Below, piece after piece: positions 856 to 37,100 of a stretch of 64,000 bases of DNA (positions are counted from its first letter, which is position 1; each line of letters opens with the position of its first letter). Below the pieces are notes generated by a model. The model was not told the origin of the DNA. It did no database searches and saw only the letters and a program-made list of their open reading frames with translations. Location: IMG/VR virus record IMGVR_UViG_3300035208_002115; one strand, written 5' to 3'. Both the position numbers and the translations under genes were made by a program. Source of the stretch: a virus. Its lineage: Duplodnaviria; Caudoviricetes.

Positions 856-3800
856 TTAAGAAACTCTAAATATTTCTAAAGAACAATCTCTTATATTTAA
901 TGTACCAGTAGCTTCTTGGGAAAACTCTAATGTTATTGTATGTGTAACAGTTGTACTGAAAGTTATAAACATAGTTCTTGTTGTATAAAGCCAAGTAGTA
1001 GTATCCGATAATTCATGATTATGAACATTACCCAACATTGTACCATCAACTCGAATTCTTGATAATATATCACTGCTAGTGATATTTTTATTCATACCAT
1101 AACTTCCAGTTATTTTATATAATCCAATCGGTAATACACCAGTTGTAATAGTTAATTTAGTTGAATATGTTGGTGTTACTGATGTTGTAGTAGTTTGTGT
1201 TAAATCTTGTGCATAATTAAATTGACTACCATAAATAGTCGGTTGAATTTTAGTATTTATTATTTTTTTATTATTATCGATTGATAATAAAGTATATCCG
1301 CTATATGACGGTGGTACATAAGTACTTGGAGTATTTGATAAATAAATAGCAAATCCACCTGTTTTAGATACAAGAACAAAATCACCACCTATTTTATTAA
1401 CCCAATAATCACCATTAAAATTTGCAATACCAACACCAGTGAAGGTTAAGGCTGGACTTGTTTGGTTAAATGTTTGTGTTGTATTTGGTAATAAATCAAC
1501 ATAATATGATGGTATACCATCATTTGTATTGAAAGAAAATGTATATAATCCATTATTTGTTAAATTCCAGTTTATAGTCCAATAAGCTAAATTTGTTAAA
1601 TCTGGGCCGTCTGTCCCTGTTACTGTGATATAATAATATGTAGTGTTTGTTGTTGGTATAGCGGTTGGTGCTGGTGTATTATAAGTGTATGTACTTTGTA
1701 CTATTCCTGTTATACCACTTAAAAAAGTAGAACCACTTATACCCAGATTATTATATAAATTTGTTGACCCAGTGACTTTTAATGTACCAATTACAGCTTC
1801 ATTTCCTAAAATATTCGAACTATTAGCCGTTAATGAATTACTTATGATTGTAACACCATTTACTGTTAAAGTATTATATAAGTTTGTAGCACCAGTAACT
1901 TTTAATGTACCAGTTACAGTTTCATTACCTGAAACATTTATACTATTAGCTGTTAATGTGTTATTTATTATTGTAGCACCATTTATTGTTAAAGTATTAT
2001 ATAAGTTTGTAGCACCAGTAACTTTTAATGTACCAGTTATAGTTTCATTACCTAAAATACTCGAACTATTAGCTGTTAATGTGTTATTTATAACAGTTGC
2101 ACCGTTTATAGTTAAAGTGGAATTTAAATTTGTTGCCCCAGTAACTTTTAACGTACCAGTTACAGTTTCATTTCCCAATATATTCGAACTATTAGCTGTT
2201 AATGTGTTATTTATTATTGTAGCACCATTTATTGTTAAAGTAGAATTTAAATTTGTTGCCCCAGTGACTTTTAACGTACCAGTTATAGTTTCATTTCCCA
2301 ATAATGTTATACCACTTAGAGTTAAATTTTTTTGCATTATAATGTTACCAGTAGAATCAATTCGCATTTTTTCATCTGCTGCTGTTGTACCATTTGTAAA
2401 AAATTTCAAAATTTTAGTTGGAGTGGAAGTTCCTATTGCTAAATGACCACCATTAGCTATTAAATATGAATCATCACCATCAACAATTGAATAACTTGGG
2501 TCATTATAGGTAGAAGAATTTATACCTAAATCTACATACATATCGGTTTCGCTTCCGTTATCTGCTGTTGCTACAATATCAGAAGAAGCATAATTACCAT
2601 TGCTACTATTATGGATATTTAATTGAATATAGGTATCTGCATCTGCATATGCACTTATTATATTTTTCGATTCAGTATAACTTTGAACAAGAAAACGTTC
2701 AGGATTTAATACATCAAATATAGGATTACCAATGGCTACATTACCACCACCAGTTGCTAAGTATACATTATCAGACGAATATGTATTAATTTCAAATGTA
2801 CCACCAGTGCTATCTAAATATAGAGAATTATTTCCATTATCACCACCAGAAATTATACTTGATGCACCTATTTGTGTGTGTATGATAAGTCTATCTGTTG
2901 TTAAATTAATAGAATTTGTATTAATATTACCTACATGATAAATCGTATTATTACCAACTGCATCTAAGTAGGTTTTGTTTGTATGTGTGTGGGTATTTGT
3001 ATAAGCAGAATCCCAATTAGTTTTATTATAACCACTGATAGATGTTGTACCACTGAAGAAACTATCAATATTTGTTTTTAAATAATAGGATGTAAACCCA
3101 TTATATGATGTTAAATTTGATATATCAGTTGATGTGTGAGTATGTGCTGAATTAGCTTTTAATAACAAATTATCATCAACATATTTCTTATCTATTAAAT
3201 CAGTATTTGATGTAAATGTTGGGTGACTATTGTATTTTTGAATACCAGTTATATTTCTTGTTCCGTCAGTTTTAAGATATTGTAAATGGTCATCTGAATC
3301 TAAACCACTTAATGAACTGTGTTTAGTAATACTCCCCCCACCAGAACCAGTTTGTCCACCAATACGATAATGAAAAGGTAAAGGTCTAATATCATATATA
3401 GAATCTGAAAAAGATGTTGTACCCCCTGAGTAAACTATATAGGCCATGTTTATTGTCGTAGTATCAAATGGTGCTATTTTAGCAGGTAATCCAGCATTAA
3501 TAGCATCTTCTTTAGATTCATAATAAGCCTGTGCTAAATAAAATGATAACTGACCCTGTGCTGTTCTTAATATCAACGATTTTACCCATTTTCCAGAAGG
3601 TATTTTCACCATTGAAAAATTGGCAATACAGGTCAAATCAATTCCACCTGTACCTAAGTACGGAGAATCTAAACTTATTATAGTTTGCGAACCTGTCCAT
3701 GTAATACCAGTGGCTAAGACCTCATTAATATATGACGTTGTATATCCATCTTCATATGCATAAATTTTAAAGAAATCATCTGATGGAAATTGATTTGTTA

Positions 3801-6800
3801 CATTTGAATCACAAGTTACAATTGTACTATATTGGGTAAAAGTAAAAGTACCACCTGTTATTATTACAAAAGAATTTTTTGTGATATCATTATAGACATT
3901 TGTTGGTATACTATAATTGTTCAAATAAACTGCTTTGTTTATATATGAAAAGTCTAACCCAACACCTTGGTCGGGAGTTATATAATTAATCATAGTAGTT
4001 AACCCAGTGACATCACTTTCTGTTGTACCAACTTCTTGGAGATTAACTGTGGTCAGACCCATTTGAATTTTACAAGCAGAACTTACAATAAGTGTTGTAT
4101 CACCACTTAATAATTGAATATTTCCACCATTATCATAAATAAATATTCCCAACCTTTTAAAATATTCCGATGTTCTTGAAAGTGAATTATTTATAACACA
4201 CCCATCTTGTCTAATTGACCCGATTTGAGCTGCCCAATAAAATGAACCTAATCTAATAAAATGAATGTTATCAGTTTCTGTTGTAGATAAATGGATGATA
4301 CCATCGGTGTCAATATAAACATAATATGTACCAATATTATCTGGAATTATATAATCGTTTGTGTCTATTGTATCACCAGACCAACTTATCAATTTGTGAA
4401 ACCCATCATATATAATATATCCACTACCACCAACAATATATAATTCGTTGATGTCGGTTTGAATTAAAACGACTTCTGGTTCTAATCTACCCGAAATTTG
4501 AGTATCTTCAATATAATGTGCAACTTTTTGATTAAAATCATCAACATTTGTGCTACTCCATTCTGGTACATTTATATTTATGTCAATTGCATTTCTATTT
4601 TCAATATCTGCTAATGTTGAACCACTAAAATTTATATCATTCCATGCGATAGTTTCACCAGTATTCATCTTACCATTCAATAATGAATCAATTAATGTTG
4701 ATTGATAATAATTAGTCAATCCAGTATATGATGATAAATCCGAAATTTCATTAGCAGTGTGGGTATGACCTGTTATCGTGTACCCGTTAAGTATATTATT
4801 TATATTTGTTTTTGTATAATAGTATGTATTTATATCAGTTATACTTGATACAACATGACTATGACCAATTAAAGTGTACCCACTTAATAACGATATTGTT
4901 TCACTCTTAGAATAATAATAAGTAGAAATATTATCAATATCACTAACTAAATGAGTATGCCCCGTGTCCGACTTAGAATCCAATGTGGATTGTAAATCAT
5001 TAATATCACTTATTTCATGTGTATGCCCTGTAAGTGAGAACGAATTTGGGTCAATAGTAGTATCAAATCTAAATGATGTGGCATTCCAAATTGCCAGATT
5101 ACCATCTGTTGGTGTATCTTCTCTTGTTGCAACTGGTAATAAATCCCCAATTTGTCCTATTTTAAAAGTTTCACCTGTTTCATCAAATAAAAACCGATAA
5201 TTTGTTGATTGTCCTCTATCTATTTCAATTCCAGCAAATCCTTTAGTTACACCAGTTCCAGTTTCACCACTATTAATATAAATCATATTATCGAATACAT
5301 TTAAATCCTCTGTGTTTATAAATGTAGTAGTACCAGAAACAGTTAAATCACCTGTTATTATTAAATCATTATTGATGATATTATGAGTGTGTCCACTATC
5401 CGATTTTAATGCTAAATTATCATCTGCATATTTTTTTGATATAAGATTTGTATCAGATGTAAATGTTTTATTATTATTATAAGAAATAACATCAGTTATA
5501 TTTCTTGTTCCATCAGTTTTAAGGTATTGTAAATGGTCATCAGCATTTAAACCAGACAAATTACCATGAACTGTCACACCAGCACCACCGCCACCAGATG
5601 TCGTATAAGAAAATGGTAATGGTCTTAAATCTATTAAATTTCCTTGTAGTGTTGTCATATCTGGTGTTACTATAATAGCACAGACTTTAATACTTGATTC
5701 AAGTCCGTGTGTATCAGGTAATGAACCTTTTTCTGCATCATCATATGAATCGAATAATTGTGTGCCATATATCATATTAGCTAATCCAATATTAGCATTA
5801 AAATCTCTTATGACTAAATGTTTTACATATTTACCATTTGGTATATCTACTAATGATTTATTAACAACTGCTATTCCAGTATCACTTGAACCGAGATAAG
5901 TGTTTGATAATGTAATAGTAGTTCCTAAAATAGAATCTACTCTAATCATATTTAAATCCGTGTCACCACTTAAATATACAAAATCCCCAACCTTTACTTC
6001 AGCCGAGAAGTCAATAGATGTTGTAACTGATGTACTACCATTAGTAAAGGTAAATGTACCCCCTGTTAATAATGTGTAATTGGGTAAATTTGGGTTGTTA
6101 TATGATATGTAATTTATTATTCCATTATGATTAAATTGGGAATCAAAATCTCCACCCCAACCACTTGGTGAATAATACCAATTAAAAAATTTAGTTCCAA
6201 CATCTGTTGATAAAATTTCTTGTAAAGTAACACTATCTAATGTAGACTGAACATTTATTTCTGGTAATTTTAATTGCATAGCTGTTGTTCCACTACCACT
6301 GCCAATCGTTGTGGCTAATCCACTATTATCATAAACGAATCCACCAAGACGTGATAAGAAATCATGCACTCTGGTTACAAATGAATCAATTCTTCTCTTA
6401 GATGAATTAACAGTTCCTATACCAGCAGCACCTGAATTTAATACGAAAAAACCCAGATAAATATGAGTGTAATTACTTAATAAATCAGTTGTTAATATTA
6501 TAGTTGAACCAGTTGTAATATAAACGTTCCAAAGATTTGGTTCATATTCTGTTACATCAAAAATAGTATTATCCCATCTTATTTCATCGAAAAAGTTTTC
6601 ATATGCAATATATCCATTACCAGCAAGTACTGTCAATTCTAATGTTCCAGATTTAGATAATAATAATGGATGTGCATAACCTGTGCCTGTTATTAATTCA
6701 ACATTATTAGATAATTTATCTAAAAATCCTTTAACGTTTTGTTGTGTTCCAGTCCAACCTGTATTTACATGTGATATCACATTTTCACCATTTTGGACAA

Positions 6801-8157
6801 ATTGATTAATACCATGCTCAGTTATTAGAGCTGATGCGCTATCACCCGATAACACATTTAAAACAGTATCAATATAATTACTATTATCACTACCAATTAA
6901 TAATGTGTTTGTTAATAATCTATTATTTTCGTAAAACGTTCCATCACCATTAAAAATAGAATAATATGTAAATCCAGAATTACCATCAATTATATAAGTA
7001 GTTGGTAATGTGCTACTGAATGAATTAAAAACGGTGTTTAGTACATTAATATTATCGTTTATCGTTATAGCAGCACCAATAAAGATATTTTCATCATCAA
7101 TATTAGTATTCCATGATATGTTACCTGATAATAATGATATCGATGAATAATCAACAGATTCTTTATTATACACTGTAATAAAATTTAATGTACTTGAATT
7201 AAGACTTACACATTCAAATGATGAATTGTTGATTAATGTGGCAGATGTCGAACCACTATGATAAACATTATAAACAAAATTATTCGGGCTTAATCCATTA
7301 AAATTATATCTAACAATTGAATTTTCAATTTTAATAATAGTTGCTGTATTCGTATTATTGTTATATAAACATCCCATATAATTACTATCATTATAGGTAT
7401 AATTTAGAATAGTAGAACCATTAGTTAATATATTAATATCATTCGAACCATGAACATAAAATGTGAAACTGTTATTATTAACACTTAATATTTCAGAATT
7501 AACTAAATATAAATATGTTTTCCCTTTTATATCTAATGTTCCATCGCTTATGTCTATAACACATTTTATATCATTATCAATATCCCAGAAACTTTCAAAT
7601 ATAACATCTGAAAAAGATACGTTAGTATTTTTATCTAATATACATGTTGGTCTATTAGTTGTGGTGAATTGGATATCTTTTAATTTTACAAATCCAAGTG
7701 TTTCACCACTCATTGTCAAATTACCTATAACTTTAACCACCGATGATGCAATACCTTGTATATAAACATAATTTTTCATGATTATGTCTTCGGTATAAAT
7801 ACCCGAACCAACTGATATAAAATATGGATTTTCACTTGAAGCATCTGTGATTGAATTTATAGCTGATTGTATTGTATCATACGTTGCACCAGATTTAGCA
7901 ACATACAACTCATTCAACACATTATCATAATAATTAGGGATAGCATTACTATATGCATTTGCATAGTCTACAATATTTCCATCGACTACTCTAACTAATG
8001 TATTTCCACTTAAATAATAATCCAGTTCATTTGATAAAATAGCTTTATCAAAGTTTTGTAATTCAATAGTTGACCCAGATGATATTATCAACCCAAAATC
8101 TTTTAGTTCAACGTCTGATGCCGTTATATTTTTTATTAAAAAAACTTCTTTATTCAT
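856..8157 (-). CDS. large tail fibre / virion fibre protein (2433 aa)
   Basis: Rich in T/S/G/N/I. Beta-helix-like start (YDTIQSAINSITDAS...VGSGIYTE), many GHTHxxxDI repeats typical of phage fibres, an internally duplicated module ending DDHLQYLKTDGTRNIT, and 41-aa tandem repeats near the C-terminus. Confidence 0.8.
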   Translation of the reverse strand: MNKEVFLIKNITASDVELKDFGLIISSGSTIELQNFDKAILSNELDYYLSGNTLVRVVDGNIVDYANAYSNAIPNYYDNVLNELYVAKSGATYDTIQSAINSITDASSENPYFISVGSGIYTEDIIMKNYVYIQGIASSVVKVIGNLTMSGETLGFVKLKDIQFTTTNRPTCILDKNTNVSFSDVIFESFWDIDNDIKCVIDISDGTLDIKGKTYLYLVNSEILSVNNNSFTFYVHGSNDINILTNGSTILNYTYNDSNYMGCLYNNNTNTATIIKIENSIVRYNFNGLSPNNFVYNVYHSGSTSATLINNSSFECVSLNSSTLNFITVYNKESVDYSSISLLSGNISWNTNIDDENIFIGAAITINDNINVLNTVFNSFSSTLPTTYIIDGNSGFTYYSIFNGDGTFYENNRLLTNTLLIGSDNSNYIDTVLNVLSGDSASALITEHGINQFVQNGENVISHVNTGWTGTQQNVKGFLDKLSNNVELITGTGYAHPLLLSKSGTLELTVLAGNGYIAYENFFDEIRWDNTIFDVTEYEPNLWNVYITTGSTIILTTDLLSNYTHIYLGFFVLNSGAAGIGTVNSSKRRIDSFVTRVHDFLSRLGGFVYDNSGLATTIGSGSGTTAMQLKLPEINVQSTLDSVTLQEILSTDVGTKFFNWYYSPSGWGGDFDSQFNHNGIINYISYNNPNLPNYTLLTGGTFTFTNGSTSVTTSIDFSAEVKVGDFVYLSGDTDLNMIRVDSILGTTITLSNTYLGSSDTGIAVVNKSLVDIPNGKYVKHLVIRDFNANIGLANMIYGTQLFDSYDDAEKGSLPDTHGLESSIKVCAIIVTPDMTTLQGNLIDLRPLPFSYTTSGGGGAGVTVHGNLSGLNADDHLQYLKTDGTRNITDVISYNNNKTFTSDTNLISKKYADDNLALKSDSGHTHNIINNDLIITGDLTVSGTTTFINTEDLNVFDNMIYINSGETGTGVTKGFAGIEIDRGQSTNYRFLFDETGETFKIGQIGDLLPVATREDTPTDGNLAIWNATSFRFDTTIDPNSFSLTGHTHEISDINDLQSTLDSKSDTGHTHLVSDIDNISTYYYSKSETISLLSGYTLIGHSHVVSSITDINTYYYTKTNINNILNGYTITGHTHTANEISDLSSYTGLTNYYQSTLIDSLLNGKMNTGETIAWNDINFSGSTLADIENRNAIDININVPEWSSTNVDDFNQKVAHYIEDTQISGRLEPEVVLIQTDINELYIVGGSGYIIYDGFHKLISWSGDTIDTNDYIIPDNIGTYYVYIDTDGIIHLSTTETDNIHFIRLGSFYWAAQIGSIRQDGCVINNSLSRTSEYFKRLGIFIYDNGGNIQLLSGDTTLIVSSACKIQMGLTTVNLQEVGTTESDVTGLTTMINYITPDQGVGLDFSYINKAVYLNNYSIPTNVYNDITKNSFVIITGGTFTFTQYSTIVTCDSNVTNQFPSDDFFKIYAYEDGYTTSYINEVLATGITWTGSQTIISLDSPYLGTGGIDLTCIANFSMVKIPSGKWVKSLILRTAQGQLSFYLAQAYYESKEDAINAGLPAKIAPFDTTTINMAYIVYSGGTTSFSDSIYDIRPLPFHYRIGGQTGSGGGSITKHSSLSGLDSDDHLQYLKTDGTRNITGIQKYNSHPTFTSNTDLIDKKYVDDNLLLKANSAHTHTSTDISNLTSYNGFTSYYLKTNIDSFFSGTTSISGYNKTNWDSAYTNTHTHTNKTYLDAVGNNTIYHVGNINTNSINLTTDRLIIHTQIGASSIISGGDNGNNSLYLDSTGGTFEINTYSSDNVYLATGGGNVAIGNPIFDVLNPERFLVQSYTESKNIISAYADADTYIQLNIHNSSNGNYASSDIVATADNGSETDMYVDLGINSSTYNDPSYSIVDGDDSYLIANGGHLAIGTSTPTKILKFFTNGTTAADEKMRIDSTGNIIMQKNLTLSGITLLGNETITGTLKVTGATNLNSTLTINGATIINNTLTANSSNILGNETVTGTLKVTGATNLNSTLTINGATVINNTLTANSSSILGNETITGTLKVTGATNLYNTLTINGATIINNTLTANSINVSGNETVTGTLKVTGATNLYNTLTVNGVTIISNSLTANSSNILGNEAVIGTLKVTGSTNLYNNLGISGSTFLSGITGIVQSTYTYNTPAPTAIPTTNTTYYYITVTGTDGPDLTNLAYWTINWNLTNNGLYTFSFNTNDGIPSYYVDLLPNTTQTFNQTSPALTFTGVGIANFNGDYWVNKIGGDFVLVSKTGGFAIYLSNTPSTYVPPSYSGYTLLSIDNNKKIINTKIQPTIYGSQFNYAQDLTQTTTTSVTPTYSTKLTITTGVLPIGLYKITGSYGMNKNITSSDILSRIRVDGTMLGNVHNHELSDTTTWLYTTRTMFITFSTTVTHTITLEFSQEATGTLNIRDCSLEIFRVS
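1750..2300 (-). repeat. 123-bp (41-aa) tandem repeat, about 4.5 copies, inside the fibre gene
   Basis: gtacc anchor recurs at 1784, 1907, 2030, 2153 and 2276 (exact 123-nt spacing). Unit is approximately GNETVTGTLKVTGATNLNSTLTINGATIINNTLTANSSNIL. Confidence 0.95.
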
Positions 8158-13541: not shown

Positions 13542-14752
13542 TGGGGAATATTTATGTGTTTGCAAAATTATCAATAGATAATAAATCTTATACTGGTGCA
13601 GCTATCGGTTATTCTAATGACTTAGGACTAACAGAAAGAAATGCAATAAAAAATTTGTTAAGTAAAATGAGAAGAAAGGGAGATAATATATGACAGACAG
13701 GATAAAAGGTTTCGTGGTAACTTTGGATAAAGATATCCGAATTGATGATGTTCAACCAATAATGGATGCCATCAAAATGATAAAGGGTGTGATTGATGTA
13801 TCTCCCAGTGTTGCCGATTCAGACGACCACATGAATCGTGAACGTGTTGCACATGAGTTTCGCTCTAAATTCTGGAATTTTATGAATAATGAATTAAAAT
13901 AATGAATCCAGAAACAAGATATCTAATTTTCGAGAATGGTATTTATTTCGGGTATCCACTTTGTTGTATAAAAGAATTTATAAAAGATATTGAAGAAGGT
14001 GGTGAAGCACCATCTAAAAGAGTTAGAAACATTAAAGGAATTGATGGTTCTTTTTGCCCTTGTAGAAAACACACACAGGAAATAGAAGAAGGTAAGATAA
14101 CGCAAGAAGATTTAATTGATGGTAGAGTTTGTCCACATCCATTTCCGATAAGAAACGAAAATGATATTATTGAATCAAAATAATTCATGAAAGAAAATAA
14201 AAAATATATTTTTGAAGTCGATTTTTCTAATATATTTCCTATATTCCACACTTTCAGACTTATCTATGATATTAAAAATTTTTTAAAATTTTGTCATTTT
14301 TTAATATGTTATAAAAATACACCAGTTAAAGGGTTTGAGGGACGGTGCATAAATTGTGCTATTAAGGATACATATTGTGGTAAATTGGATATAGTAAGAT
14401 GTCCAAATAGGTTTGACCGTCATTATGAATTAAGATACTTATTTAAATGGATAAAAAAATTATCATAAAAAATTATATATTGTATTTATCTGAAATATCT
14501 GAATTTTTATCAATCGATAATAAAAAGAAGGTGGCAGATAAAATTAATACTATAAATAATAGTGACTGGACTGTTGAAAAATTGGGTAAACATGATACAT
14601 TAGTACCAATTAGACTTCAGCTTTTTTTGCTTTATCAAGAAATGGAAGTTATGTTTACAATAGAAAATATTAATGAAAAAATAATATGGTTGAAAGATTA
14701 TGAAATTCAATATATTAGAAAATTAAAAATTAATGATATTTTATCAGAGTGA
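13541..14752 (+). other. run of small hypothetical CDS (13541-13693 not in track, 13690-13902, 13902-14183, 14187-14468, 14447-14752)
   Basis: Abutting or overlapping start-stop junctions. The last ORF ends RKLKINDILSE. Confidence 0.6.
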
Positions 14753-14761
14753 TAAAGAATA

Positions 14762-14769
14762 TATATTTG
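14762..14769 (+). promoter_or_regulatory. TAnnTTTG promoter for the RNase P RNA
   Basis: TATATTTG ends 5 nt before the predicted 5' end of P1. Confidence 0.65.
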
Positions 14770-14774
14770 TAATT

Positions 14775-14980
14775 AATTAAACACAGAGGAATCATCGCTC
14801 TACGGAGAGGAAATTCTGGACACATGGGGAGAACGCAGAAGGACTAATAAACCGCTATACTGCATAAGAGTGTGCAACGAAAATTGAACTTGGGTCTTGT
14901 TTCCCACCTATAAGTTCTGGTTTCGGCCTTTAGACAAATGATGATATAAAACGGAATCCAGATTACGCTCATGTTTAATT
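14775..14980 (+). ncRNA. rnpB: minimal RNase P RNA (catalytic domain intact, S-domain vestigial)
   Basis: CR-I GAGGAAAUUCUGGA and CR-V ACGGAAUCCAGAUUA form P4 with the bulged U. P1, P2, P3, P5, P15, P16, P17, the P6 pseudoknot and the L15 GGU can all be paired by hand. Confidence 0.9.
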
Positions 14981-15039
14981 CTAATTTTTTTTATATTTAA
15001 AATGTTTTTATTTTTGTATAATAAACATTTTTAATCATT

Positions 15040-15785
15040 ATGAATGATAATTTTTTAAAGGCACTTGTAAATATTATCAATACTATGGTTGATATGCGGT
15101 CTCATTTATCTAAACCAGAAATAGTTGGTATGTTTTATAAAGACACCAAAGATATTGTCATATATGATGAATTCATGAAAGAATCTAATCTCATTGTAAA
15201 CCATCTGATGAATATCAAATTGGATATTGAGCTAAATCCACATATGAATGATATGATAAATAATCTTTTATTTTCTAATCAGATTTTAATGGTCAAACCT
15301 GATATAATTATACACATTAATGACAGTTTAAAAAGAGACAATAATAAGGAAAAATGGTTGTCTTTTTTCAGATTGATATTAAGTAATAAAAGAACACCAA
15401 ATAAACAAAAAGAATGACAATAGAAATAGGTAATAAAAGTTTTTCGGATTTAACAGCCGATGATATCAAACAAATTATTTTGATAGAAGGTTGTTCGCCA
15501 GTCCCTGAACATTGGAGCGAACCTGTCATAATGGATTTCAACAACACTATGTTCAGTGATACTGTTGTTGCTGATTTTGTGAGTTATAGAAAATCCGATA
15601 ATATGAAAAGTTGCGAATATACCTTTTTCTTCAATTTTAAGGATTTTCATATTCATTACGTGAGGGATTTGTATGTGAGAGATTTGGAAAAAAACAACCC
15701 AGTCTATCGACCGAAGGGGAAGTCCATAAAGTTGGAGACCCTTAAATATCTGATTAAACAAGGCTTTGATGTACCTATTTATTGA
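15040..15785 (+). other. two hypothetical CDS (15040-15417, 15414-15785)
   Basis: TATTTTTG promoter element at 15009-15016 and an ATGA overlap between the ORFs. Confidence 0.6.
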
Positions 15786-34516: not shown

Positions 34517-34591
34517 TAAAATACTTTTTGTTGATTAAAAAATTAGTTATACTTTTGGTTCTCTCAAATAAAAAAAATAAATCTACATAAT

Positions 34592-35545
34592 ATGAAAAAA
34601 AATAATTTAGCCTCTACTGGTTTAAGCTTATCACAGGCACAGTCAATTTCCAATTTGTGTAACCAAGCTGCAAAAGAAATTGAAAGAACAATTGATGAAA
34701 TAAATAATTGTTCTAAAACGATAAAGGTTAATTCAAAAGACCACACACTATTAGAATCACATCCACTACCTGAAAATATTATTGAACTTATTGAAAAGAA
34801 AGGTAGACTTCATGCTTGTCAGGCTTTTCTTATGGAAAATATTCGTGCCAAAGATAGTCTTTTAAATGAAGCTAAGATGGAATTACCTGATATTTCAGGT
34901 ATTGAAAAACCAAAACAACCAGAATATAAAGTAGCCAATATTATACCAAATGTTACTGACGACTGGGGTTGGTCTCAACTTTCTGCAACGGAAGTTAATG
35001 AATATACTGAGGCCGAGGCTATGGCTTCTCATATTGGTTTGTTTATCCATAAAGGTTCTAAATTAGATTTACTTCGTAGAGAGTTGTCGGTTATACCTTC
35101 TATCGAATGGTTCAATGTTGAAGATGGTAAAAAAACACCTGTCGAGATAAAAAAACACCACAACGCAGAAAAGTTGTTAAAACTACATGAAGAACTGGCT
35201 GCAAAACACCGAGATTATGAAAAACGTGTTAACTATTATAAGGCTAAAGTTAAGAACTTAAATACACAGGAGAATGCAGGTATCGCAAAAGTTAATGCAG
35301 ATGCTCAAACAGAGGTTGAAAAATACAATTCGGAACTTTCAGCAGAATACACCAATTTTCAAAAAATATATAGTGAAAAGGTTAAAACTGTTAAATCTGA
35401 GTTTGAAATAAAACGTCAGAATAATATTAAAAATATCGTTTCACTTCGTATTCAGGTTGACCTGCGCTTTCAGAAAACCGTTGATGAATTTCTGAAGAAC
35501 CTTGGTAAAGAAGAAGAAAAAAACGAAGAAAAAAACGAAGAATAA
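34592..35545 (+). CDS. coiled-coil-rich hypothetical protein upstream of a structured RNA
   Basis: 317 aa, heptad-rich (E/K/A/L). Has its own TACTTTTG promoter element at 34550. Confidence 0.75.
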   Translation: MKKNNLASTGLSLSQAQSISNLCNQAAKEIERTIDEINNCSKTIKVNSKDHTLLESHPLPENIIELIEKKGRLHACQAFLMENIRAKDSLLNEAKMELPDISGIEKPKQPEYKVANIIPNVTDDWGWSQLSATEVNEYTEAEAMASHIGLFIHKGSKLDLLRRELSVIPSIEWFNVEDGKKTPVEIKKHHNAEKLLKLHEELAAKHRDYEKRVNYYKAKVKNLNTQENAGIAKVNADAQTEVEKYNSELSAEYTNFQKIYSEKVKTVKSEFEIKRQNNIKNIVSLRIQVDLRFQKTVDEFLKNLGKEEEKNEEKNEE

Positions 35546-35595
35546 GACATTGGGTGGTTAACAAAGGAAGTATAAACCTACTTTGTTAATCTTTG

Positions 35596-35897
35596 TGCTT
35601 AGTGAGGGGGTTCTAAAATATATATGCTTTAAAACAGCAATACATTTAAGAATGGTATCTTAAAACAGAAATTATCCGCTTCGGTGGATAAAAACCGCCC
35701 CTTCTGCAAATTAAAAATTAAGTTTTTTTGGATTTCTTTTACAAAAAAGACCAAGATGTAAAACAGATTGCACGTATACGTGAGAACTGGTTTACAAAAA
35801 AAGACTTAATCTTTGTCATTGCCTTTGAGTGGAAGGGGGTCTTTGATTTTGATATTGTATTTAGCATTAGCTATATACCTTCTTCACTAAGCAACCA
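35596..35897 (+). ncRNA. unclassified ~300-nt structured RNA
   Basis: 15-bp closing stem 35596-35610/35879-35893, a cUUCGg hairpin at 35672-35691, nested long-range stems, and a following T tract. Confidence 0.7.
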
Positions 35898-35930
35898 TTT
35901 TTTTTTAATAACTAAACAAACTATATATGC

Positions 35931-35967
35931 AAGAATCCAGAACATGATGTTTTGGATTCTTTTTTTT
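35931..35967 (+). terminator. intrinsic terminator
   Basis: aagaatccagaaca / tgttttggattctt stem followed by a T run. Confidence 0.8.
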
Positions 35968-36011
35968 AAACAAAACACGTTCTTTTAGATATAATTCTAA
36001 AAGGATTTGTT

Positions 36012-37100
36012 ATGTATTCAGACCATATTTTTACTATACTATATACAATGTGTGACATAGCTGATGTAGATTATTATTCAATAGATTTTCAGTCTGATGG
36101 GTGGTATTCTAAACATACATGGTCTAAAAATGAAGAATATGATTTTAAAGTGTGGTTTTATGAATACCTCAGAGATAATAAAGAGGCCAGAAAAGAAATA
36201 ATGAATTACCCGTCTACAAAATCAAAAAATATAGAAGAAGCGGTCAGTTTTTTTGTTAGTATGTATGGGTTTGTAACACGCAAAGATGACGAGAATAAAT
36301 AATTATCGTTTTATCATAAATTATTTCTATTTTTGTTTATATGATAACTTTTGAAGAAATATTATTATTAACCAGAAACCAAGAACTGGAATTTAATCCT
36401 GTTTACGATTTTATGGTAAGTAAAATTATTATTGATGGGTTTTCTGTATGTTTTACCAATATTATTAGTACTGGGGTTGTATCATCAACTAATTCAAATA
36501 TTCATAGATATAAAATAATATCTAATGATAAGAATATTTTGATTGATGTATCTAAACAAAGACAGTCGGATGTGTTGATGAGATTCTTTTTCCCTACTTC
36601 TGATATTTCTCAAAAGATGACTTATAATGTGGAGTTTACATCATTTTTGGCTAATAACGATATAGATTTAATATGTAGTGATTGGTTGTTGAGTCAATTA
36701 TGTTCTAAAAAATTTCTTAGAAAAAGAAAAATAGAAGAATTAAACATTTTTATGTAACAAGAATATCTGTTTAACTATTTTTTTATTATCTTAGTCAAAA
36801 CTTTCTAACAAAATCATGGAGTTATTCAATACCGTTCAAAGTGTTCACGATATTATATCGACCTATAAAAAACAATATGTGGTTATAACGTTATATAAGA
36901 GTGTGATAAATAATAGATGGGTGATACATTTTGAAGGTAAGTATGTTAATAATTCAATATATATTTATAAAGCTGTCGCAAAGGAACTTCTTAAAAATAA
37001 ATATTTTATTATATCAGTTCATTCTATTAATAATGATATAGAGTATAATTATAATCCAATAAAGTTGAGACGGGAAAAAATACGGGTTTTACAGTATTAA
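36012..37100 (+). other. three hypothetical CDS (36012; 36341 and 36816 with RxxKI tails)
   Basis: End RKRKIEELNIFM and RREKIRVLQY. Promoter motifs at 35968 and 36328. Confidence 0.6.

Follow-up and report, generated by a model that had tools for sequence, protein, structure and literature searches.

A structured RNA with triplets phased at six nucleotides is the genomic partner of a conserved huge-phage protein and may form a ribonucleoprotein with it

Do a phage protein gene and the stretch of DNA directly behind it together encode a ribonucleoprotein? The question was raised by a 64,000-nt stretch (hereafter, the window) of the IMG/VR virus record IMGVR_UViG_3300035208_002115, for which an initial annotation, made from the letters alone, had described a coiled-coil protein gene followed by a structured RNA with 6-nt periodicity, and had suggested that the repeated hexamers serve as binding sites for the adjacent protein. 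The complete source record comprises 675,678 bp (CheckV completeness 98%) and encodes 40 tRNAs, and is therefore the genome of a huge phage. The module occurs in it as a single copy, and the genes around the 317-aa protein gene are small phage ORFs, for example YopX and a PHROG hydrolase.

Some further features of this genome are recorded here as observations in their own right. A 2433-aa minus-strand ORF (856-8157) contains TAAATTTG/TAAGTTTG repeats at an interval of 123 nt (window positions 1588-2255), a recurrence that points to 41-aa tandem repeats in the encoded protein. The idea of a minimal RNase P RNA at 14775-14980 was unsupported, with no Rfam match to positions 14500-15200 at E ≤ 1. 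Outside the window, ARAGORN predicted a suppressor-type tRNA with the anticodon UUA, which would decode UAA (G000:C1:37754-37827), and tRNAs of the same type were predicted in two relatives (L014:2849-2926 and L186:1745-1822). Such tRNAs hint that stop codons may be read through or recoded.

The ORF of the 317-aa protein was confirmed (Table 1), and it belongs to a large family. A protein-based scan of IMG/VR returned 39 loci with identities of 49-87%, many of them on contigs of 100-640 kb, and the family as a whole falls into 1,905 clusters when grouped at 90% identity, with 783 representatives remaining at 50%. All of the ~1,900 clusters derive from uncultivated, mostly huge phages, and no source supplied an informative name for any of the 1,905. 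The 317-aa protein itself matched no Pfam or PHROGs family and no PDB sequence, with nothing at the curated cut-off. Searches of the deposited phages in GenBank with blastn and tblastn gave no match either, the protein family being absent there. Among 185,579 species genomes, the protein was found in five MAGs only, on contigs that resemble mis-binned phage, one of them of 362 kb. The MAGs that carry the module include two labelled Paceibacterota and Omnitrophota (L275, JBAZIW010000001.1, 362,763 bp, and L277); for L275, the 362-kb contig, a huge phage genome placed in the wrong bin is the likeliest explanation.

Structure prediction with AlphaFold2, using the alignment, gave a confident model (pLDDT 85.8, pTM 0.76) with long helices and two beta-hairpins. 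The earlier label of a coiled-coil protein is thus loose, the predicted fold being a helical bundle that also contains the hairpins. The best Foldseek match in the PDB had an E value of 0.15, all matches being generic helical bundles, while VIA-align reached a best Z of 8.0, to unrelated helical bundles, and the ESM Atlas returned only generic helical bundles and hypothetical proteins. Across the PDB, BFVD and the ESM Atlas, the sole strong structural match was an uncharacterised phage homologue. Mean column identity in the protein alignment was 61% among divergent phages. Six His, three Glu, five Arg and two Lys are invariant and about seven more Lys near-invariant, the named invariant positions being H74, H147, H153, H190, H199, H206, E82, E142, E210, C23 and several Lys/Arg. 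Together, the conservation, the invariant residues and the confident fold make the protein look functional. The invariant residues would suit an enzyme, or a protein that binds RNA tightly, and the six His and three Glu suggest that it may be metal-dependent. Pfam, PHROGs and the fold searches revealed no recognisable RNA-binding domain.

How closely is the RNA tied to this protein? Starting from the protein, 39 out of 39 loci that extend past the gene carry the RNA, and nearly all of the 39 IMG/VR loci have an ORF-free stretch of 300-430 nt past the gene in which conserved blocks align. Starting from the RNA, we ran two RNA-only pattern scans of IMG/VR and filtered the raw matches, mostly due to chance, with an nhmmer profile. 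The scans yielded dozens more RNAs, and apart from two matches truncated at contig ends, every one of them directly follows the protein gene on its strand. Stop codon and RNA are 0-13 nt apart in about 50 of the 57 unique instances, and the remaining instances carry inserts of ~20-300 nt or, in one case, of 1.47 kb. This longest insert (L035:3940-5410) contains an ORF with YD/RHS-like repeats (…YTYDE.G…) and indicates that the pair tolerates separation. No other neighbouring gene was conserved across the loci. We also inspected three to four distant representatives of the protein (profile E ~1e-30 to 1e-37) and found the hallmarks of the RNA downstream in all but one, whose contig stops at the gene. 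These hallmarks consist of a 250-330-nt gap that holds the closing helix (P1), a helix resembling P2 and two tracts with GUCUUUG. The persistence of the pairing over such distances indicates that it is old and that protein and RNA are obligate partners in these genomes.

The structured RNA behind the gene extends over ~347 nt (35551-35897). The 425 nt 3' of the gene fold with -115.8 kcal/mol (z = -7.1 compared to dinucleotide shuffles), and RNAalifold on 28 homologue sequences produced three helices, designated P0, P1 and P2 (Table 1). In the modelled pairs, 97.1% of 1,026 cells were paired, compared to 41-51% when the partner strand was slid by 1-3 columns. Compensatory changes on both sides were found in 36 of the 37 modelled pairs, and not one of 500 shuffles matched the observed pairing values. 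G-U pairs are frequent in the helices, and A-C pairs and other non-pairs are rare, which indicates that the RNA functions as the plus strand, i.e., in the orientation of the protein gene. The initial annotation had made its reading depend on conservation of this region in relatives, and the region past the gene proved to be both conserved and covarying among homologues.

The three helices correspond to the post-stop hairpin, the 15-bp closing stem and the long-range stem (placed near 35698 and 35829) that had been drawn from the single sequence; all three were recovered and covary across the 28 homologues. P0 has a loop of 14 nt that includes a 2-bp mini-stem (35570-71/35576-77) and is flanked by a conserved GGUG-like sequence on its 5' side and UCUUU on its 3' side. 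The complementarity of P2 is 9/9 in 44 of 48 sequences. Support is more graded in the other parts of the RNA. The two hairpins of the 5' arm that had been reported are present in the minimum free energy (MFE) fold, but the arm differs in length and sequence among homologues. In the source phage, it ends on its 3' side with a conserved unpaired AACCG, and a conserved unpaired (A/U)N(C/U)CG always precedes P2. Within the inner domain, where UAAGUUAC and GAUAAUUA are conserved motifs, the earlier stem (35718-35730/35795-35809) and hairpin (35757-35796) are likewise part of the MFE fold and obtained partial support from segment alignments: RNAalifold on the inner segment recovered P5/P6, and P3/P4 appeared in two clade-specific variants. 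A crude all-against-all covariation scan for pseudoknots was dominated by G/U-rich columns. Two further ideas were discarded. An extension of P1 by pairing of CUAUAUA with an upstream AUAUAU found no support in the variants, and the 3' ACCA, considered as an RNase P/CCA-type end, occurs only in the source phage and its closest relative, the others having R-A-C followed by U or C.

Table 1 Coordinates of the protein gene, the RNA elements and the putative transcription signals in the window
Feature	Position	Strand	Observation
Candidate promoter TACTTTTG	34550..34557	+	Match to the Bacteroidota -7 element TAnnTTTG; 34 nt 5' of the start codon
Conserved 317-aa protein gene	34592..35545	+	ORF; predicted helical bundle with two beta-hairpins
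P0, post-stop hairpin	35551..35595 (stem 35556-35566/35581-35591)	+	11/11 pairs compensatory; 96.7% of cells paired
P1, 5' strand (core closing helix)	35596..35610	+	15/15 pairs changed on both sides; 97.9% of cells paired
Variable 5' arm	35611..35697	+	MFE hairpins 35645-64 and 35672-91 (UUCG loop)
P2, 5' strand	35698..35706	+	9/9 pairs covary
Inner domain	35718..35809	+	P3 35718-30/35795-809; P4 hairpin 35730-52
Inner domain, continued	P5 35758-66/35787-95; P6 hairpin 35771-82	+	MFE fold
Tract A, single-stranded	35811..35828	+	Three hexamers, CUUUGU CAUUGC CUUUGA; conserved in homologues
P2, 3' strand	35830..35838	+	Pairs with 35698-35706
Tract B, single-stranded	35838..35877	+	Near-invariant GGUCUUUG; five U-U/A-G triplets; invariant CUAUAUA (35871-77)
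P1, 3' strand	35879..35893	+	Followed by conserved R-A-C and a U run
Intrinsic-terminator-like hairpin and T run	35931..35967 (hairpin 35931-35961)	+	Shared only with the closest relative, L001

The locus had been described as a self-contained unit with a promoter and a terminator of its own, an arrangement that turned out to be limited to the source phage and its closest relative. The proposed promoter does match TAnnTTTG, yet the window as a whole contains no excess of this motif over chance (111 observed versus 124 ± 11 expected); a sigma-70-type site was not found in the region of 34550. The terminator hairpin with its T run also exists and is probably the transcript end in the source phage, but other phages apart from the closest relative lack it: there the module ends in a U run or leads directly into tRNA genes. 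Since we found no promoter-like element between the protein gene and the RNA, the two are most likely co-transcribed. An RNA that begins so close behind a stop codon, with no separate promoter-like element, could be a cis-acting 3' UTR that stabilises the mRNA of the protein or acts as an autoregulatory operator. Phage proteins that regulate their own mRNAs, such as T4 gp32 and RegA, count in favour of this. However, ~300 nt with at least six helices, tracts of fixed length and deep covariation exceed what known 3' stabilisers need, and the autoregulatory operators that are known lie at the 5' end. We therefore regard a 3' UTR function as improbable.

The best-conserved feature of the RNA is formed by its two single-stranded tracts; tract A, situated 5' of the P2 3' strand, reads UUUUUG UCUUUG CCUUUG in homologues. 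Tract B, measured from GGUC to CUAUA, is exactly 33 nt long in 48 of 48 homologue sequences. Its triplets are spaced at exactly 6 nt, with three conserved positions alternating with three poorly conserved ones, and the information content peaks every 6 nt on U-U/A-G. The periodicity that had been noticed by eye at 35811-28 and 35841-70 is thus borne out by the information profile. In the window, the triplets occupy 35813-15, 35819-21 and 35825-27 in tract A, and 35843-45, 35849-51, 35855-57, 35861-63 and 35867-69 in tract B, the last two being UUA. The most conserved unpaired stretch of all is GUCUUUG, which occurs in both tracts. Judged by their pattern, the tracts look like serial docking sites for a repeating partner.

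A period of six could also come from translation, a possibility that the initial annotation itself had raised for ORF 35728-35988. One frame through the tracts gives a V-F-D-F-D-like peptide and is open in many homologues, so that this ORF and its equivalents might encode a small protein of alternating hydrophobic and acidic residues. The sequence evidence speaks against coding. ATG is absent from every homologue examined, and the open stretch is inconstant, with 9-50 codons upstream, 5-44 downstream and stops at variable places. Moreover, the reading frame differs between tracts A and B, conservation falls on a whole triplet followed by three free positions with a period of 6 and without a third-position codon pattern, and the helices that overlap the frame covary. 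On these counts, we rejected a small protein-coding gene, for which start, frame and third-position variation should be conserved, and we consider such an origin of the periodicity hardly credible.

What kind of partner would dock at such sites? The protein TRAP binds the trp leader at 11 spaced G/UAG triplets, with one subunit per triplet. The RNA described here shares with the trp leader conserved triplets (UUG/UAG in this case) separated by short free spacers, and it contains the at least five conserved triplets with free spacers that characterise a TRAP-type target, i.e., five in tract B and three in tract A. In contrast to the TRAP system, the spacing here is strictly 6 nt in blocks of 3 and 5, the protein is a helical one of 310 aa rather than a 75-aa beta-sandwich that forms an 11-mer, and the RNA is a large scaffold, whereas the trp leader is an attenuator.

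Given this comparison, we propose one explanation for the locus and its relatives, which we hold to be moderately probable as a whole: a two-part huge-phage module in which protein and RNA would form a triplet-bound ribonucleoprotein, with a more weakly indicated role at tRNA or in translation. The module would consist of the conserved ~310-aa protein and a dedicated structured non-coding RNA of ~270-390 nt, made from the strand of the gene a few nucleotides past its stop codon. P0 would come first, followed by the core that P1 closes, in which P2 and the inner domain would position the two unpaired tracts and so offer 3 + 5 UUG/UAG triplets at exact 6-nt spacing. Several molecules of one protein, most probably that of the adjacent gene, would then bind the triplets in a TRAP-like manner, one per subunit, yielding a defined particle. 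A ribonucleoprotein is the best-supported reading of the locus; that the protein binds the RNA we infer from the patterns above, and likewise the oligomeric state and the function of the protein. A homo-oligomer prediction for three protein copies with the alignment scored 0.26, where the mark is 0.42, a value that weighs neither for nor against an oligomer. As a counterargument, the adjacency of gene and RNA could reflect co-expression alone. The narrower assignment to a class, namely an ornate scaffold that presents eight phased UUG triplets to copies of a new-fold protein and acts on tRNAs or the translation apparatus, is tentative, and we offer it as a possibility rather than an expectation.

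The triplet tracts might instead capture a protein of the host. The heptamer reported as the preferred site of Bacillus subtilis CspB, 5'-GTCTTTG/T-3' (PMC1904285), matches the near-invariant beginning of tract B letter for letter and recurs in tract A, which makes a host cold-shock protein a possible alternative ligand of GUCUUUG. The RNA would then sequester, as a decoy or sponge, a host protein that binds single-stranded RNA, and the phage protein would assist or regulate the RNA; genes with a cold-shock domain are absent from the phage and present in Bacteroides. As in the sponge RNAs CsrB and RsmZ, many copies of a short motif are present in one RNA, but the GGA motifs of those RNAs lie in hairpin loops at irregular spacing and come without a fixed adjacent cognate gene. 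Furthermore, the resemblance to the CspB site covers 7 nt only, the binding data concern a Firmicute protein on DNA, and no cold-shock domain was detected in the adjacent protein. The remaining hexamers retain UUG only, and the obligate phage protein would be left unexplained. We thus consider a sponge a rather remote alternative to the ribonucleoprotein.

Among possible roles, the initial annotation had also listed a type III-like antitoxin. Known antitoxins of type III systems consist of ~34-36-nt tandem repeats that precede the toxin gene and are separated from it by a terminator. A protein gene with an adjoining structured RNA that bears internal repeats recalls such pairs (ToxIN/CptIN), in which the RNA would neutralise a toxic protein. 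The defining features are lacking here: gene order and RNA architecture differ, as the predicted protein fold appears to, and the RNA lies downstream and adopts a single complex fold, and its repeats are phased at only 6 nt instead of forming 36-nt tandem units. When we looked for a ToxN/AbiQ-type endoribonuclease, the protein showed no Pfam or PHROG match and the fold searches listed generic helical bundles. A single copy in a lytic-type huge phage does not fit well either, and a toxin-antitoxin function is very improbable.

The RNA had not been recognised as a member of a family in the initial annotation, and this agrees with our searches of Rfam 15. At gathering thresholds, the whole window gave no match, and a search of positions 35400-36100 at E ≤ 10 returned only sub-threshold chance matches, the best being VrrA with 26 bits (cut-off 50). 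The same search of eight homologous loci, some of them distant, detected tRNAs and a single Hatchet ribozyme and nothing else, with none of these matches over the RNA. The Hatchet ribozyme (RF02678, 82.7 bits) is located at L024:1416-1553, ~1.4 kb upstream of the module, in one clade. The families without a match include GOLLD, ROOL, RNase P RNA, tmRNA, 6S, group I/II introns and the small ribozymes. A tmRNA, which would have a tRNA-like domain with acceptor and T arms and a tag reading frame with a stop codon, was predicted by ARAGORN neither in the window nor at any of 52 loci, and neither a stop codon nor a frame is conserved in the tracts. By the libraries searched, the module is undescribed; the RNA may sit without a name in an existing catalogue of 10,006 unnamed viral structured-RNA candidates (PMC10690425).

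To place the module in its genomic surroundings, we surveyed tRNA genes at 68 non-redundant loci, of which 23 have a tRNA at a distance of up to 1 kb and 12 at up to 100 nt. Nearly all neighbouring tRNAs are co-oriented with the module, and some begin 6-25 nt past the RNA. In a FastTree protein tree, the loci with such tRNA neighbours cluster mainly in one deep clade, where the module lies inside co-oriented tRNA arrays, and in part of a second, so that the adjacency counts as one or two events in evolution. The clade of the window lacks it, and in the source genome the nearest tRNA array is ~34 kb from the module. Odd tRNA-like genes follow directly after the RNA at L014:4242-4400, L182:5401-5489 and L194:4523-4593; one of these has an apparent intron-like insert and the other two are predicted with 2- or 4-base anticodons. 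In the clade with tRNA arrays, the module would be processed along with the tRNAs, and it is from here that the weaker suggestion of a particle acting on tRNA or translation is made.

The same surroundings recall GOLLD and ROOL, large structured RNAs of phages and prophages that often lie by tRNA islands, no protein partner having been identified for ROOL (10.1101/2024.12.08.627333). Like them, the RNA could act without the adjacent protein, through assembly, as a scaffold or with a host partner, and the protein would be a co-expressed neighbour or an RNA chaperone. The position within tRNA arrays in one deep clade and the missing RNA-binding domain are consistent with this. The RNA differs from GOLLD and ROOL, however, in sequence and structure, as neither Rfam model matches it, in size (~300-350 nt compared to roughly 600-800), in its obligate adjacent protein and in its long phased single-stranded tracts. 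Two observations argue against an RNA acting alone. Adjacency, orientation and near-zero spacing hold over deep divergence, whereas the other neighbours change, and ~50 nt that are conserved as unpaired with only the triplets fixed would be untypical of RNA-only tertiary packing. An independent RNA is therefore unlikely, though it deserves serious consideration beside the ribonucleoprotein.

Large structured RNAs with unexplained roles are rare and have repeatedly been a source of new biology. In the present case, neither component is annotated, each is abundant in huge phages from the environment and the two are strictly coupled; a defined protein partner, candidate binding sites and a fixed register provide a handle for study. 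Entries in Rfam for the RNA and in Pfam for the protein would be justified. Should the particle act on tRNA or translation, huge phages would have an RNA-based device among their means of remodelling the protein synthesis of their hosts.
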